A program made the position numbers and the translations under genes. Below the pieces are notes generated by a model. That model was not told the origin of the DNA and ran no database searches. It saw only the letters and a program-made list of their open reading frames with translations. A stretch of 42,872 nucleotides of DNA, taken from Promethearchaeota archaeon. GTDB lineage: Archaea; Asgardarchaeota; Lokiarchaeia; Sigyniarchaeales; SOKP01. The DNA lies in contig JBHLOI010000029.1 of NCBI GenBank assembly GCA_048940645.1, positions 1-42,872 on the forward strand. The letters run 5' to 3'. Positions 23,874 to 42,872 of this stretch are shown here, one piece after another (position 1 is the stretch's first letter; every line of letters begins with the position of its first letter).

Positions 23874-24428
23874 ATGGAAGCGCGGGATACTAAAGGTAAA
23901 ATCGTCAAAGAGACTTTTCCAGCAGAAATCATCTCAATTGTGGGAGATATTTTAGCGGGTGTTATTTTATCCCTTTTAATTCTGCCTTTTGACAGTTTCC
24001 TTATATTAATTCTAATCGTTCCTGCTTTACTTTCAATGCGGGGAAATATTAGTGGTCCTTTTATTGCGAGATCTTCCAGGGATTTAATAATTGGTCAATT
24101 TAATAAGAAATCTTGGATAGAAAATGTAATCGCAACGTATTTATTATCGATGGTAACAGCATTTATTATTGGATTATTCAGTTATTTATTAGATTTAATT
24201 TTAATAAAAGCATTTCTTATACCCTTTGATTTATTAATAGGAATTCCAATTTTATCAATTTTGTTCACTTTAACAATTTCAATACCTTGTTCAACAATAT
24301 TAAATTATATAGCCTTCAAATATGGGCTTGATCCCAATAACGTTGTAAATCCTATTATGACGGCAATTGATGATTTTTCTACCGTAATATGTTTCTATCT
24401 TACTATTATCCTTTTGGGGGTGCCATGA
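23874..24428 (+). CDS. mgtE: MgtE/SLC41 integral-membrane Mg2+ transporter domain (subunit 1)
   Basis: PX6GN (PALLSMRGN) and GLDPNNVVNPIMTAIDD motifs; 5 TM segments. Confidence 0.85.
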   Translation: MEARDTKGKIVKETFPAEIISIVGDILAGVILSLLILPFDSFLILILIVPALLSMRGNISGPFIARSSRDLIIGQFNKKSWIENVIATYLLSMVTAFIIGLFSYLLDLILIKAFLIPFDLLIGIPILSILFTLTISIPCSTILNYIAFKYGLDPNNVVNPIMTAIDDFSTVICFYLTIILLGVP

Positions 24429-24980
24429 ATGGATTACTTTAAAAAAATTTTCAAGGAATCAATTATCGTAGTTATCATATCCTCAATATTGGGATTGATT
24501 TCAGGTACCATTCTTTCAGAAAATCAAGATGTATTGTACAGTTTTCCAATTATCTTATTAATTTTACCTTCATTGAATTCTTTAATAGGAGATATTTCTA
24601 CAGTCTTAATCTCTAGATTAACTTCTCATTTATATATTGGGACTGTATCTCCTAAAATTCAAAAATCAGATAGACTAAAGGAAGATTTTTATGGATTGCT
24701 TATAACTATTTTATTAAGTTTATTTGCATTAATTATATTAGGATACTTATTTGGTTATATTTCAGGAATAATAATAGTAAATCCTTTTTTAATAATATTA
24801 ATCATTATGATTACCATTCTACTGCTTTTTAGCTTGATGTTTGTATTTCTGTTCGTGAGTTCTATTTTTTTATTTAGAAAAGGTAAAGATCCAAACAATT
24901 TTTTAATACCGATTACAACATCCTTGTTAGATTTTCTAACCCCATTGTTTATGATATTATTTATTCAATTATTTGTTTAA
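24429..24980 (+). CDS. MgtE/SLC41 integral-membrane domain (subunit 2)
   Basis: PSLNSLIGD and GKDPNNFLIPITTSLLD; starts immediately after the upstream stop (TGA-ATG). Confidence 0.8.
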   Translation: MDYFKKIFKESIIVVIISSILGLISGTILSENQDVLYSFPIILLILPSLNSLIGDISTVLISRLTSHLYIGTVSPKIQKSDRLKEDFYGLLITILLSLFALIILGYLFGYISGIIIVNPFLIILIIMITILLLFSLMFVFLFVSSIFLFRKGKDPNNFLIPITTSLLDFLTPLFMILFIQLFV

Positions 24981-35623: not shown

Positions 35624-36547
35624 ATGCACAATAGCTATCGAGACCTTCTGAAGAACAATAAATTAGATGATAATTTACAAATTTGTGAATGCTGTGAAAA
35701 CCCATGTATCGAAGAGAGAGATGGAAATAAAGTTTGTTTAAATTGTGGAATGATTTTAGAAAGAACTTACGTTGGAAATGAAAGAAGGGCTTATACTGCT
35801 GAAGAAGTTCAAACAAGGCGTAGAACTGAACCAAGATGGAGAGATTTTGGTCCTAGAACTATGTTACCTACCACAAAGACGGATTCTAAAGGAAAATCAA
35901 TTGGTCCTAAAGAACAAGCTCTTTTTTCGAGATTATCAAAAATTCAAAATTCATTAATTTCAAGCATTGAAAGGAATTTTTGGGAAGCTAAACCTAAATT
36001 AAAGATGCTTACATCTAAATTAAACATTCCAGAATACATCAGTGAAACAGCTTGGAAAGTATATAGTATTGTTGCAAAGAAAAAGTTAACTATGGGGCGT
36101 TCAATTAATGGTTTTATAGCAGGATCTTTATATGCTGCCATAAGAGTACATGATTTTCCTCGTTTATTAGATGAATTATGCGAAGCTTCATTAACTCCTA
36201 GAAGAACGGTTCATAGAAGTTTAGCTATGATAATCCGTGAAGTATTACCTGAATTAGGATTAAGATATCAGCCTATTACGGCAGAAAGTTTAGTGTATCG
36301 ATTTGGAAATGAATTAGATTTACCCATGAATATTCAAAAAAACGCAATAGAAATGCTAAGACAAGCATCTAGTAATGGATTGAAACGCACAGGTAAAGAT
36401 CCAAAAGGATTAGCGGCAGCATGTATCTATATTGCTGCTAAAGATGGTTCAATTCGAAAAACACAGAGCTTAGTAGCAGAAATAGCAAAAATAACTGAGG
36501 TAACACTCAGAAGTAGGGCTAAACAAATTAAAAGTAAATTATCTTGA
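35624..36547 (+). CDS. tfb: Transcription initiation factor IIB (TFB)
   Basis: Zn ribbon C..C...CLNCG, B-reader ERRAYT, two cyclin repeats (GRSI, GKDPKGLAAACIY) and the BRE-binding TQ...TEVTLRSR. Confidence 0.93.
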   Translation: MHNSYRDLLKNNKLDDNLQICECCENPCIEERDGNKVCLNCGMILERTYVGNERRAYTAEEVQTRRRTEPRWRDFGPRTMLPTTKTDSKGKSIGPKEQALFSRLSKIQNSLISSIERNFWEAKPKLKMLTSKLNIPEYISETAWKVYSIVAKKKLTMGRSINGFIAGSLYAAIRVHDFPRLLDELCEASLTPRRTVHRSLAMIIREVLPELGLRYQPITAESLVYRFGNELDLPMNIQKNAIEMLRQASSNGLKRTGKDPKGLAAACIYIAAKDGSIRKTQSLVAEIAKITEVTLRSRAKQIKSKLS

Positions 36548-37306: not shown

Positions 37307-38281
37307 TTGAAAAAAAAAAGAGAGCAATCCTTTGAAAGCTCTAAATGTGAACACCAGAACGTAGAACAAGATGGAGGATATCTTGTTTGTAAAGATTGTG
37401 GTCTAATTTTAGAAGAGCAAGTAGATTTTGAAATATCTCCTTCTAATAAAATTTATCCAGAATCACAATTAGATTATGAACGCAAAATAAGGTTTGGAGA
37501 TTCAAAAGCAACCCAAGATCCAAAAATTAAACAAAAATATGACCAAATTAAAACACTAAATAAATGGTTTAGAGATTATAAAACTAGTTTTTCTACACAA
37601 AAAAAAACAATTGAATTGCTTAAAAGTTATGGGATAGGATTACATATTAATAAAGTAAAATATCAGCGCATTAAAAACCGATATCTCAGATATAACAAAT
37701 ACCATAGGCATACATACCAAAATATGGTAATTATTTTTTTGGCAATTGTTTGGATGGAGATAAAAGACACGACAAATATTAGGATAGAGGAATATATTAA
37801 GGTTGCCAGAGAATTAGGTCATAAAGTTAATAAAAAAATGCTTAATAATGCGATGCTTAAAGTAAAAAGAACTGAGCAATTATTTGATAAGAGTGTTAAA
37901 GATAAAGCTACCTTAGAGCGTGAAATTAAGGAAAAAATAAAAATCTTATTCCAAAAAGACCTTAATAGTATTAGTTATGATAAGATAAAAGCCCATTTTT
38001 CGAATAAATCTGAATATGAAAAATTGAAAATCGATATGCAACTATTAGCAGCTGAATTACTAAACAAAATTTCTTATTCTCAAATACAAAACATCAATTA
38101 TAAAGCATTTACAGCAGGATTAATCTATTATATTGGTCAAACTTTAGATAATAAGAAAATTTTTACCCAAAATCTTATTGAGGAAATTAGCAAATTTTCA
38201 AGTACTACAATTAGAAAAAAATTTAATGTATTAAAAGATGTTTTAGGGGACCCTCAAACAGTGCATGTGGAATTCGTTTAA
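37307..38281 (+). CDS. Divergent TFB-like protein
   Basis: Zn ribbon CEH...LVCKDCGLIL; C-terminal 'AFTAGLIYY...TQNLIEEISKFSSTTIRKKF' resembles the second TFB cyclin repeat/HTH. Confidence 0.7.
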   Translation: MKKKREQSFESSKCEHQNVEQDGGYLVCKDCGLILEEQVDFEISPSNKIYPESQLDYERKIRFGDSKATQDPKIKQKYDQIKTLNKWFRDYKTSFSTQKKTIELLKSYGIGLHINKVKYQRIKNRYLRYNKYHRHTYQNMVIIFLAIVWMEIKDTTNIRIEEYIKVARELGHKVNKKMLNNAMLKVKRTEQLFDKSVKDKATLEREIKEKIKILFQKDLNSISYDKIKAHFSNKSEYEKLKIDMQLLAAELLNKISYSQIQNINYKAFTAGLIYYIGQTLDNKKIFTQNLIEEISKFSSTTIRKKFNVLKDVLGDPQTVHVEFV

Positions 38282-38368
38282 AAACTATAACTTATTTTGA
38301 AGGATAAATAATTAATAAGGGTGAATTCTATAATTATAATTATTCATAATTATCTTAATAAAAAAATA

Positions 38369-41212
38369 ATGTCTGAAATTCAATTATCTAATAATAACTA
38401 TTATACAAAATCTATTAAAGAGTTAATTAAGGAGTTTAACACGGATAAAGAAAAGGGGTTGAAATCATCCGAGTTAAAACTATATTATTCTAAATATGGA
38501 TATAATGAATTACCTAAAATTAAAAAATCCATCTGGAAAATTTATTTAGCTCCAATTTTTAATTTTCTGATAATTATTTTGCTAATCTCTGGAATAATTG
38601 TATTTCTTTTAGGATCGCCTGCATCAACAATAATTACATTTATCGTAGTGTTCCTAAATTCTATAACTGTAATAATCCAACAATCTAGGGCACAGAAAGC
38701 CCTCGAATCTTTAAGAAAAATTGGTGCATTAAAAGCAACAGTTTTGAGAGATGGGCTTCAATTTGAAATCCCAACAAGAGAATTAATTCCAGGAGATATA
38801 ATTTTATTAGAACAAGGGGATAAAGTTCCTGCTGACGCTAGAATCATTGATATCACTAATCTAACTATTGATGAAGCACCCTTGACAGGTGAAAGTGAGC
38901 CCGTTGAAAAAAGTAATAAAGAACTAAAAAATGCAGAAATTCCTATACAGAAACAATTTAATATGGTATTTATGGGCACATATGTTGATACCGGAAGAGC
39001 AAAGGCAGTAGTTACAGGAATAGGAGTTAATACAGAAATTGGAAAAATTTCAACTCAATTAAATGAAATGGGAAGTATTGAAGAAATTCCTCTTACAAGA
39101 AAATTAAACAAACTTGGATATATTCTGGGTTCCATTGTAATTATAATTCTTATAATTCTGATTATCTATAAATTTGCTCTTTTAGGCATCCAGGGAAAAT
39201 TTTATGGAGACTTTATAAGTAATGCATTAATTAGCTCAATTCTTAGATCAATGAATATCATGCCTATTAATTTACCCATATTAACAACACTCGTTTTAAT
39301 TACTGGCGTTCTTAATATGGCGCAGCACGGGGTCATTATTAAAAATCTTTCTGCTATTGAATCTTTAGGAAGAGTATCGGTAATTTGCTCAGATAAAACT
39401 GGAACTATAACCAAAAACGAAATGACAGTAGAAAAGTTTTGGATCAATAATAAAGAATATAATGTTACAGGTTCTGGATATGAAACTGAGGGATTTATTA
39501 CAGAAAATGGTAAAGTTATTAACCTAAAAGATAATAAAACATTCCAAATGTTCATTGAATCAAGTATACTAAATAATAATGCTAGACTTATTTATGAAGA
39601 TGTTAAAGTAAGAGGAAAAGATAGGAAAGAAATGGCAGTAAGAAGAGCTTTAGGATCACCTACAGAAGCAGCACTTCTAGTATTAGCTGAAAAAGCAGGT
39701 TACATTTTATATGACATTAGAGGAAATTATAAAAAGATAAAAGAATTTTCATTTAGCTCTGAAATTAAACGCATGTCTACGATTTGTAGTCCAAATAGTG
39801 ATGGTAATATTAATTTTATCTTTTCTAAAGGTGCCCCCGAAAAAATTCTAGAAATATGCACTCACATAGAAACCAATAATCAATTAAAAAGCCTATCAAC
39901 GGATAATAAAAATGAAATTTTGGATAATATTCAGTCAAAAGCAAAACAAGGATATAGAACTTTAGCTGTTGCATATAAAAAAGTAGAAAATAATATAATA
40001 GATGCCAGAGAAAATATTGAAAAAGACTTGATTTTTCTTAGTTTCTTGGCTATTTTAGATCCACCACGTAGCCAAGTAAGAGAATCAGTAGAAGAATGTG
40101 AATCTGGACGAATAAAAGTAGTAATGATTACCGGTGACCATCCTAATACAGCACAAACTATAGCATCTCAAATGAGAATATATAAGCCAAATGATCTAGT
40201 TGTTGAAGGTTCTGAAATTTCAAGGCTTAATGACCAAGATTTCAACCGCGTCTCAGTTTTTGCGAGAGTATCTCCTTCAGATAAAGAAATTATTGTCGAA
40301 AATTATCAAAAACAAAAGAAAGTAACTGCTATGACCGGTGATGGGGTTAACGATGCTTTGGCTTTAAAATTAGCCAATGCAGGAATAGCTATGGGTATTA
40401 CTGGCACCGATGTTGCTAAAGAAGTTGCAGATCTCGTAATATCGGATGATAATTTTACATCTATAGTAAAGGGTGTGAAGATTGGGAGAGGTTTATTTGC
40501 TAAGATTCGAATTATCGTTTATTTCTTCATATGCTTAAATATTATGGAGGCCCTGATATTCTTTACTTATGAATTCATACCATCTTTTGCATTATTTAGT
40601 TCAGAATGGCAACATATTTATATTTTTGGGATAGTTCATTCACTCCCTTCAATAGCATTAGTTATTGATAAACCACCTATAGATGTCATGAATGAACCCC
40701 CAAGAAATAAGGAAGAATTATTAAATAGAAACATATGGAAATTACTACTTATTCATGCTTTTCTAATGGGTTTAGGTTTAGTTTTAGCTTTACAACTAAC
40801 TTTAGGAGAAGTTATTCCCTTAGATTCTTGGAATGTTAATCTAAGTCTTTTAGAAAGTGATTTAATTGCACAAAAAGCAAGAACCATGTTTATTACGACG
40901 CTATTTATTATTGAAACAACTTTTATATGGAGTATTAGACGACCAAATAAATCCCTGTTTAAAAGTATTAAAGAGGAATTTAGCTGGAAGTTATTTATTA
41001 TCAACTCTTCTACTTTACTACTACATATATTACACATTTTCTTTTCATTACCCATTAACTCCTTCATAGAGTCATCAGGATTAAATTTCCAGATTAATTT
41101 CATGTTCCTTAGTGGTACTGACTGGTTAATTTGTATTTTATTGTCTCTGCCAGGGATTTTTGGAATTGAAGTGTTTAAATACTTAGCAAGACGAAAAAAT
41201 ATAATATTCTAA
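38369..41212 (+). CDS. P-type ATPase (P2-like scaffold, atypical membrane ion site)
   Basis: PADAR, TGES, DKTGT, KGAPE, DPPR, TGD and GDGVND; about 10 TM. ATG 38369 preferred over GTG 38321. Confidence 0.95.
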   Translation: MSEIQLSNNNYYTKSIKELIKEFNTDKEKGLKSSELKLYYSKYGYNELPKIKKSIWKIYLAPIFNFLIIILLISGIIVFLLGSPASTIITFIVVFLNSITVIIQQSRAQKALESLRKIGALKATVLRDGLQFEIPTRELIPGDIILLEQGDKVPADARIIDITNLTIDEAPLTGESEPVEKSNKELKNAEIPIQKQFNMVFMGTYVDTGRAKAVVTGIGVNTEIGKISTQLNEMGSIEEIPLTRKLNKLGYILGSIVIIILIILIIYKFALLGIQGKFYGDFISNALISSILRSMNIMPINLPILTTLVLITGVLNMAQHGVIIKNLSAIESLGRVSVICSDKTGTITKNEMTVEKFWINNKEYNVTGSGYETEGFITENGKVINLKDNKTFQMFIESSILNNNARLIYEDVKVRGKDRKEMAVRRALGSPTEAALLVLAEKAGYILYDIRGNYKKIKEFSFSSEIKRMSTICSPNSDGNINFIFSKGAPEKILEICTHIETNNQLKSLSTDNKNEILDNIQSKAKQGYRTLAVAYKKVENNIIDARENIEKDLIFLSFLAILDPPRSQVRESVEECESGRIKVVMITGDHPNTAQTIASQMRIYKPNDLVVEGSEISRLNDQDFNRVSVFARVSPSDKEIIVENYQKQKKVTAMTGDGVNDALALKLANAGIAMGITGTDVAKEVADLVISDDNFTSIVKGVKIGRGLFAKIRIIVYFFICLNIMEALIFFTYEFIPSFALFSSEWQHIYIFGIVHSLPSIALVIDKPPIDVMNEPPRNKEELLNRNIWKLLLIHAFLMGLGLVLALQLTLGEVIPLDSWNVNLSLLESDLIAQKARTMFITTLFIIETTFIWSIRRPNKSLFKSIKEEFSWKLFIINSSTLLLHILHIFFSLPINSFIESSGLNFQINFMFLSGTDWLICILLSLPGIFGIEVFKYLARRKNIIF

Positions 41213-42070: not shown

Positions 42071-42213
42071 TTTTATTTTATACTATAATTAACTAATTTT
42101 TTTATCAAAAAGAAATAAAATAAAAAGAATTATTGTTATAGTCTATCTATTAAAATGATTTAATTTTATAACAATATATTAATAAATTTTTGAAAGTTAC
42201 GGGAGATCTTTTT

Positions 42214-42872
42214 ATGCCAGAACCTTATTATACTATGGATTTAAACCAAATCTATTCAGAATTTCAGACAAATCCCACAAATGGATTATCAAAAGAGGAC
42301 GTACAGAAAAGATTGGAATTATATGGCTTTAATGAAATACCTAAAGCTTCAAAAGGATTTATTAAAATCTATTTAGCACCCTTATTTAACTGGTTAATTG
42401 TTATTTACCTAATTGGAGCTGTAATTTTATTTTTAGCAGCTTTTTTTGGGGGAGGAAATTTAACTTTTGTAGGAATAACTCTAGGAATTGTTTTTTTAAA
42501 TTGTTTTGTTGCAATCATACAACAATATAGAGCAACAAAGAAATTAAAAGCTTTAAGAGAAATGACAGCCCCGACTACCACAGTCATTAGAAATGGTGAA
42601 AAGCTGGATATACCGACTAAAAACGTTGTTGTAGGAGATCTTTTAGTATTAACACAAGGGGATAGAATTCCTGCAGATGGGAGAATAATACGAGCATCTA
42701 ATCTTGAAGTTAATGAAGCATCATTAACAGGTGAAAGTGAACCAGTTAAAAAATTATATGAAGGTTATGCATTATCTAATATGGAAATCTCAATTGGAGA
42801 ACGGCTTAATATGGTTTTTTATGGAACTTATATCACAACAGGTAATGCAACTGCTATAGCAGTAAAAATCGG
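42214..42872 (+). CDS. Second P-type ATPase paralogue, N-terminal part (runs off the window)
   Basis: Not in the ORF track because no stop is in the window. Translates MPEPYY...YGFNEIP...IYLAPLFN...IIQQYRA...GDRIPADGR...EASLTGESEPV...NMVFYGT. Confidence 0.92.
   Translation, partial: MPEPYYTMDLNQIYSEFQTNPTNGLSKEDVQKRLELYGFNEIPKASKGFIKIYLAPLFNWLIVIYLIGAVILFLAAFFGGGNLTFVGITLGIVFLNCFVAIIQQYRATKKLKALREMTAPTTTVIRNGEKLDIPTKNVVVGDLLVLTQGDRIPADGRIIRASNLEVNEASLTGESEPVKKLYEGYALSNMEISIGERLNMVFYGTYITTGNATAIAVKI

Follow-up and report, generated by a model that had tools for sequence, protein, structure and literature searches.

In a 42,872-nucleotide stretch of DNA from a Promethearchaeota archaeon of the Sigyniarchaeales (contig JBHLOI010000029.1 of assembly GCA_048940645.1, positions 1 to 42,872; hereafter, the window), we examined a P-type ATPase gene (38369 to 41212, + strand) and the family of Asgard archaeal pumps to which its product belongs. 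This pump, paralog A of what we call the Asgard PxN...H family, has five nearly invariant polar residues in its membrane helices, N301, N724, E727, H757 and E849 (two of them carboxylates), which by sequence comparison constitute an ion-site signature. Relative to the calcium pump SERCA, the architecture of the transport site is new: site II is filled, and site I is kept with His in place of Asp. The best explanation is that the family branched off early from the P2 (calcium-pump-like) class, is confined to Asgard archaea and has had its transport site rebuilt. We think it reasonably probable that it pumps a small cation, and neither Ca2+ nor lipid, through one rebuilt site, a judgment that we attach to no particular ion. 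P-type ATPase subfamilies are defined by the chemistry of their transport sites, and where the site is new, the substrate or the stoichiometry is usually new as well.

Catalytic motifs and transport-site residues of the pump

The gene is a stop-free open frame of 947 amino acids; translation could alternatively begin at an in-frame GTG at 38321, and close orthologs are likewise 947 amino acids long. Its product contains the five Pfam domains of a P2-type cation ATPase (Cation_ATPase_N, E1-E2_ATPase, Cation_ATPase, Hydrolase and Cation_ATPase_C). As the initial annotation had stated, the catalytic motifs are all present (TGES, DKTGT, KGAPE, DPPR, TGD and GDGVND); by script we located the TGES motif of the actuator domain (A-domain) at residues 173–176 (38885 to 38896, + strand) and the phosphorylation motif DKTGT, with D342, at 39392 to 39406 (+ strand). 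The A-domain of P4 pumps carries the motif DGET, and the reading of TGES rather than DGET was also borne out. The pump passed the P-type ATPase superfamily model TIGR01494 (285 bits against a cut-off of 62.3), with DKTGT, TGES, TGD and GDGxND in place, and each of its ten membrane helices was predicted with high confidence in an AlphaFold model (predicted local distance difference test, pLDDT, 85; predicted template modeling score, pTM, 0.79). In a word-indexed search we found more than 120 clusters at 66%–92% identity to the pump, and so many ortholog clusters in this range point to strong purifying selection. We conclude that the best explanation of these sequence features is that the protein would run an ordinary phosphorylation cycle as an active P-type ATPase.

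We assigned residue equivalences from HMMER alignments to pumps of solved structure (LMCA1, 6zhf; SERCA2), and we give SERCA residues in SERCA1 numbering. In the alignment to LMCA1, 'imPInlp' of the pump lies over 'aiPEalss', which puts I300 at the Glu of PEGL (PEal in LMCA1), and 'ifgivHslP' lies over 'inlvnDslP', which puts H757 at the Asp. The motif of the fourth membrane helix (M4), P299-I300-N301-L302-P303, is encoded at 39263 to 39277 (+ strand; PINL at 39263–39274), with I300 at the position of SERCA E309. The initial annotation had given the same coordinates, had placed PINL at the PEGL position and had named an alignment to the contrary as a refutation of its reading; the alignment agrees with that placement. 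In M5, CLNIMEA (40532 to 40552, + strand) keeps both members of the Asn/Glu pair, as had been noted, with N724 equivalent to N768 and E727 to E771 in the SERCA2 alignment. In M6, QHIYIFGIVHSLP (40610 to 40648, + strand) has F753 at N796, V756 at T799 and H757 at D800. In M8, E849 (40913 to 40915, + strand) corresponds to E908 in a weaker but collinear stretch of the SERCA2 alignment (8.5 bits).

These residues are strongly conserved, and the pattern is not due to chance. Among 50 family members at <70% identity, P299 is invariant (100%), only I, V, F, W or L occur at position 300, and the five polar residues are kept in 94% (N301), 88% (N724), 100% (E727), 98% (H757) and 96% (E849). N301 is specific to the family, Gly occupying its place in canonical pumps. 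An aromatic residue, Phe or Tyr, occupies position 753 in 35 of the 50, and the position of T799 is variable. At position 105 in M2, Glu was found in 45 of 45 canonical relatives and Gln in 86% of the family.

SERCA site I is formed by N768, E771, T799, D800 and E908, and site II by E309, N796 and D800, the last being common to both sites. Thus, three of the five site-I ligands are kept in the family (the equivalents of N768, E771 and E908) with His for D800, and the site-II places of E309 and N796 are taken by hydrophobic or aromatic side chains. The initial annotation had described the M6 ligands as lost. The replacement of N796, T799 and D800 held up, but the change at D800 is a conserved Asp-to-His exchange rather than a simple loss, and the Glu in M8 is retained. 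Since the family has conserved substitutes at all four positions, E309, N796, T799 and D800, standard SERCA-type Ca2+ binding is excluded, as had been proposed. The same genome carries a separate canonical pump, with PEGL, NFDE and NIATDGIP, on another contig (C40).

From the sequence alignments we infer that N301, N724, E727, H757 and E849 together form one site. A single shared site fits the divergent member P0152, because in it N301 (to Ser), N724 (to Ser) and H757 (to Gln) are all changed together. We know of no such constellation of conserved buried polar residues in P4 flippases.

Distribution of the family in Asgard archaea

The named clusters from the word-indexed search come nearly all from Asgard metagenome-assembled genomes (Loki-, Hod-, Hermod-, Thor- and Promethearchaeota). 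In an exhaustive HMMER search over 1.84 billion cluster representatives, about 37 representatives carry P-[IVLFW]-N-[LIF] in M4: nearly all matches above ~540 bits, plus four lower ones, three of which are fragments. Nearly all of the motif-bearing representatives that cover M5 and M6 also have the N..E pair and the His. The break is sharp, in that every other listed match has PEGLP (or a close variant) and ...NLVTDGLP. Phylogenetic trees unite the sequences with the motif in a single clade, apart from the PEGLP pumps, with 100% support in the Shimodaira–Hasegawa-like approximate likelihood ratio test (SH-aLRT).

We also surveyed 201 genomes sampled across the Asgard phylum (27 GTDB families), a survey that the initial annotation had suggested for PINL-type pumps. 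Matches to the pump at E<=1e-180 occurred in 130 of the 201 genomes and in 12 of the 27 GTDB families, and the family motifs were present in all 14 of the 14 strong loci that we took from other GTDB families. For ten GTDB families with weaker matches only, we inspected one genome each and found only PEGLP- or PEALP-type pumps; similarly, the single protein retrieved from Promethearchaeum syntrophicum (MK-D1) is a canonical pump. Heimdall-type members (two loci of GTDB family f5, and P0352 of the Heimdallarchaeaceae) read PISIP or PITIP in M4 (M-P-I-S/T-I-P) and retain the M5 N..E, the M6 His and the M8 Glu.

With one exception, the organism-named members of the family are all Asgard, and they include the deep-branching Hel-, Odin- and Heimdall-type lineages and Harpocratesius. 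The exception, P0062 (955 amino acids, 69% identical to the pump), is labeled 'Candidatus Nanopelagicaceae bacterium' at NCBI; since this is the sole non-Asgard label among the named members, its contig is probably mis-binned.

A survey of Asgard transporters listed a 'putative Ca2+ ATPase' for each of its five Asgard proteomes without setting this clade apart (PMC7997004), and we found no description of the family in the open literature searched, a scope that excludes subscription journals. Databases annotate the family as 'Ca2+-transporting ATPase', a label that is probably wrong. The pumps thus appear to make up a large, widespread and undescribed P2-derived family, so far named only from Asgard archaea; in several Asgard classes few transporters are retained as widely, and the genes often come as two in tandem.

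Class of the pump

We compared the pump with the P-type subfamilies through the NCBIfam hidden Markov models (HMMs). The pump scored highest with the SERCA-type (TIGR01116, 462 bits) and PMR1-type (TIGR01522, 457 bits) models, followed by those for P2D (TIGR01523, Na+/K+-efflux; 411), P2B (402), P2C (346), P3A (TIGR01647; 339), P3B (326), P5 (232) and P4 (TIGR01652; 111). All of these scores lie under the curated cut-offs, including 703 bits for TIGR01116, 798 for TIGR01522, 645 for TIGR01523, 615 for TIGR01647 and 431 for TIGR01652. The canonical relative P0154 scored 732 bits (SERCA-type) and 778 bits (PMR1-type), passing only the SERCA-type cut-off, and broadly the same order of scores was seen in four further family members and three canonical pumps. 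The ratio of the P2D to the SERCA model score is 0.82–1.03 in the family, compared to 0.79 in a canonical pump, and in a Heimdall-type member the TIGR01523 score exceeds that of the SERCA model. With the P4 model, family members scored 88–126 bits, similar to ordinary PEGLP Ca2+ pumps (91–108 bits).

The predicted fold gives a consistent picture. The best Foldseek matches of the AlphaFold model were SERCA, SPCA and LMCA1 (template modeling score up to 0.80), and the best sequence matches in the PDB were P2A pumps (E 2.5e-128). In VIA-align comparisons, P2 pumps matched the model at Z 30–33.5 and 26%–31% identity, with PfATP4 at the top (Z 33.5, 26% identity); AHA2 (Z 29.6) and MgtA followed at about Z 29.5 and 24% identity. 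P4 flippases matched at only Z 24.5–27.7 and 17%–19% identity, and P5 pumps at 18%–21% identity. These HMM scores and structural identities make up our comparison with the eukaryotic P4 and P5 pumps, and no special affinity of the pump to P4 flippases emerged from it.

In a tree with a P1B outgroup and Asgard P3-type pumps, the family formed a separate clade with a stem of 0.5 substitutions per site; it arises from the unresolved base of P2 and P3 and does not join P3. Its HMM scores, its predicted fold and its sequence identities place the family with the P2A calcium pumps.

Gene neighborhood

A second pump gene of the family, paralog B, follows in tandem. Its 5' part lies at 42190 to 42872 (+ strand), and it runs beyond the end of the window to contig position 45262. 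Paralog B is 41%–45% identical to paralog A and has PLNIP in M4, N..E in M5 and His in M6. A scaffold gap of 100 N at contig positions 42873–42972 falls inside it; because an identical stretch of 25 residues, GERLNMVFYGTYITTGNATAIAVKI, appears on either side of it, we consider the gap an assembly artifact rather than a broken gene. The two paralogs nearly always lie side by side in related genomes of this GTDB family.

Between the two pumps lies a gene for a 271-amino acid membrane protein with a VTT/DedA domain (PF09335; 41255 to 42070, + strand). A gene of this type stands between A and B in 8 of 30 related loci, and on that count we rejected a partnership of DedA/VTT with the pump; the gene is an insertion specific to a lineage rather than a regular companion of the pump. 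The most constant neighbor of paralog A is the gene immediately upstream (37307 to 38281, + strand), present in 27 of 29 related loci (our own locus aside). It encodes a 324-amino acid zinc-ribbon protein with weak TFIIB-type and A2L ribbon matches, which looks like a divergent TFB/TFIIB paralog. A canonical TFIIB gene is located at 35624–36547.

Other Asgard families mostly have one pump gene, flanked by unrelated housekeeping genes. At the 14 loci from these families we found no conserved partner; the neighbors include genes for a subtilase, a Lon-like protease, an M29 peptidase, FttA, ketopantoate hydroxymethyltransferase and similar proteins. At one locus of GTDB family f7 (L033, 10859–12844, + strand), a 661-amino acid gene with a weak match to the E3 UFM1-ligase domain (PF09743) overlaps the pump gene by 4 nucleotides, and of five f7 loci, three have such a gene after the pump. 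Since VTT occurs in 8 of 30 loci and the neighbors elsewhere are unrelated, a conserved lipid-handling module is absent.

Ion transporters of the genome and of Asgard archaea

In profile searches of this genome, we found CorA, MgtE, three ZIP transporters, three CDF transporters and two CPC-type P1B pumps, and we did not find Trk, Kup, CPA antiporters or Mrp (MnhG); none of its five P-type ATPase matches is a KdpB-like pump. Across the Asgard sample, TrkH/KtrB, KdpA and Kup each matched 0 of the 201 genomes, in searches in which control genomes did match.

Although 117 of the 201 genomes yielded CPA antiporters, within this GTDB family only 6 of 40 did. Bona fide P3A H+-ATPases (above the TIGR01647 cut-off) occur in 30 of the 201, and genomes of this genus have as many as four copies; these Asgard P3A pumps score 640–1077 bits and read IPVALP in M4 and LNDA in M6. 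In GTDB family f1, where few genomes have a CPA Na+/H+ antiporter, it is mostly those genomes that have P3A pumps. We tested for a distribution of the pump complementary to that of P3A pumps or CPA antiporters and found none at the level of the phylum.

A Loki metagenome-assembled genome has been reported to have no Mg2+ transporter, and we therefore considered a role of the pump in Mg2+ transport; we rejected it in view of CorA and MgtE in this genome. At 23874–24980 of the window (+ strand), two adjacent short genes (184 and 183 amino acids) each match the MgtE membrane domain, and the pair looks like a split or duplicated MgtE-type Mg2+ channel.

Proposed transport site and candidate ions

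We propose that in these pumps the equivalent of SERCA site II would be gone, with the M4 Glu changed to Ile (I, V, L, F or W in the family) and the M6 Asn to Phe or Tyr in ~70%. The pocket that remains would be the equivalent of site I, made of N724 and E727 (M5), E849 (M8) and H757 (M6), with the new N301 (M4) nearby. One small cation may be carried per cycle through this pocket, a stoichiometry that we infer, and H757 could act either as a ligand or as a protonatable, built-in counter-charge.

By our rough odds, there is about an even chance that the ion is monovalent (Na+, K+ or H+). Several observations favor such an ion: the site has two acidic residues, compared to four in SERCA; the M2 Glu (position 105) of the canonical relatives is Gln in most of the family; the family leans relatively toward the P2D Na+/K+-efflux model; this genome has CorA, MgtE and the ZIP, CDF and P1B transporters, while Trk, Kup, CPA antiporters and Mrp (MnhG) were not found in it; Trk, Kdp and Kup were not found in the Asgard sample; and CPA antiporters turned up in few genomes of this GTDB family. 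We also count in support of a rebuilt cation site the ENA Na+ pumps, which lack the M4 Glu.

Other observations weigh against parts of this reading. The clustering of the five pocket residues is drawn from homology to SERCA, and the equivalence of E849 and E908 comes from the weak stretch of alignment, though that stretch is collinear and the residue conserved. The K+ gap is phylum-wide, yet 15 of the 27 GTDB families are without a strong match to the pump; CPA antiporters co-occur with the family in f5, f7, f12, f14 and f22; and no informative conserved gene neighborhood was found. A simple H+ pump is argued against by the true P3A proton pumps that co-occur with the family in some genomes. 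Finally, His is a typical ligand for Zn, Fe and Mn and is unusual for Na+ or K+; since it is odd for alkali ions, it speaks for a transition metal rather than a monovalent ion.

Transport of a divalent transition metal (Mn2+, Fe2+, Zn2+, Co2+ or Ni2+) on a P2 scaffold, with H757, E727, E849 and two Asn as ligands, would be a special case of the small-cation pump, and we rate it as a distinctly minor prospect, although not a negligible one. Borderline metals are typically bound by a set of this kind (one His, two carboxylates and Asn), conservation of the His reaches 98%, and SPCA, a close structural match, carries Mn2+. On the other hand, the genome already has its ZIP, CDF and CPC-type P1B transporters, the pump has no metal-binding tail, no metal regulator was found nearby, and the acidic residues lining the entry path are neutralized; moreover, the gene behaves like a widely kept, often duplicated housekeeping gene, unlike typical metal-resistance pumps. 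We consider it unlikely that the protein is still a Ca2+ (or Mg2+) pump binding one ion at the retained site-I-like pocket, in spite of the kept equivalents of N768, E771 and E908, the Ca2+ pumps as closest relatives, and the database annotation. D800 bridges both SERCA sites and is essential, and its place is taken by His, a poor ligand for Ca2+ or Mg2+. Furthermore, to our knowledge all known single-site Ca2+ pumps keep site II, not site I, and the genome has its separate canonical PEGL...D pump, as well as CorA and MgtE for Mg2+. A pump that has lost the canonical ligands might in principle no longer transport anything and only cycle, for example as a sensor or regulator; with replacement membrane residues that are 94%–100% conserved over a deep clade, and all ten helices predicted with high confidence, we regard this as very improbable.

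A substrate that is a lipid or an organic compound also seems unlikely to us, slightly more so than Ca2+ or Mg2+. The initial annotation had raised the possibility of a lipid or other non-metal substrate and of an intermediate position between P2 and P4 pumps, and we weighed the corresponding model of a P4-flippase-like pump, or a P5-type pump for large substrates, that would move a lipid or other non-metal substrate through an M2–M4–M6 groove gated by Ile300, possibly with the DedA/VTT protein. Its appeal lies in the Ile at the E309 position, as in the PISL of P4 pumps, in the PISIP and PITIP of Heimdall-type members, which are nearer still to PISL, and in the VTT/DedA gene between the two pumps in this genome. 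However, the Ile is not diagnostic of flippases, because P3A pumps read IPVALP and ENA pumps IPAS, that is, a hydrophobic residue and Ala at the same place. Of the flippase motif N-x-x-P-I-S-L the pump has the Ile after the proline, in a PINLP with Asn and a second Pro; the upstream Asn (N296) is kept in only 18 of 50 members (36%). The evidence from other parts of the protein points the same way: P4 model scores are no higher than those of ordinary Ca2+ pumps, identity to P4 structures is 17%–19% compared to 26%–31% for P2 pumps, and two Glu, one His and two Asn are conserved at buried cation-site positions. VTT is present in only 8 of 30 related loci, and lipid genes do not recur elsewhere. 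In searches that lacked a positive control, CDC50 (PF03381) was not found in this 89.6%-complete genome and the P4 model (E<=1e-40) matched 0 of the 201 Asgard genomes. All in all, we judge the flippase model improbable. Only the Ile after the M4 proline is shared with P4, and neither the lipid substrate nor the intermediate position was upheld; the family provides no archaeal precursor of lipid flippases.

Returning to the small-cation pump, we advance one further idea, tentatively and with more doubt than belief. The family could be a new functional P-type subclass, in which a single His-containing pocket of site-I type pumps Na+, K+ or H+, and which might serve as a main ATP-driven device for cation homeostasis or membrane energization in archaea where Trk, Kdp and Kup were not found; it would then be an analog, conceivably a relative, of the plasma-membrane P-type pumps by which the cells of eukaryotes are energized. 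Identifying the ion would bear on how ion gradients are set in the closest archaeal relatives of eukaryotes, since the three K+ uptake systems that are standard in prokaryotes were not found there.

Comparison with known pumps

With the P2A pumps LMCA1 (6zhf, 9euq), SERCA1/2 and SPCA1/PMR1, the pump shares domain order, ten helices and catalytic motifs, and it keeps the M5 Asn and Glu and the M8 Glu; these pumps are also its best fold matches (template modeling score 0.8, 28%–31% identity). It differs from them in the M4 Glu (to Ile), the M4 Gly (to Asn), N796 (to Phe or Tyr), T799 (variable) and D800 (to His), and, relative to the single-site Ca2+ pumps, in keeping the site-I-like pocket instead of site II.

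The other resemblances are each limited to part of the site. The P4 flippases (ATP8A1/2, Drs2p, Dnf1 and Neo1) have in common with the pump the Ile after the M4 proline, which extends to PISIP in the Heimdall-type members, but the pump has TGES, not DGET, the second M4 proline (PxxxP), and the conserved buried Glu, Glu and His. The P3A pumps (AHA2, Pma1 and archaeal homologs) likewise have a hydrophobic residue after the M4 proline, inside PxxxP, and a single protonatable residue at the M6 position of D684/D800; this residue is Asp in P3A and His in the pump, from which the M5 Arg is also absent. The P2D pumps (fungal ENA and PfATP4) are cation pumps that do without the M4 Glu, as the family does, although ENA retains the M6 Asp where the family has His. 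ENA Na+ pumps read IPAS in M4, with Ala at the place of the Glu (PMC10779151), and a His that acts as an internal counter-ion, one of the two roles that H757 may have, has been documented for P1B-4 pumps (PMC10654040).

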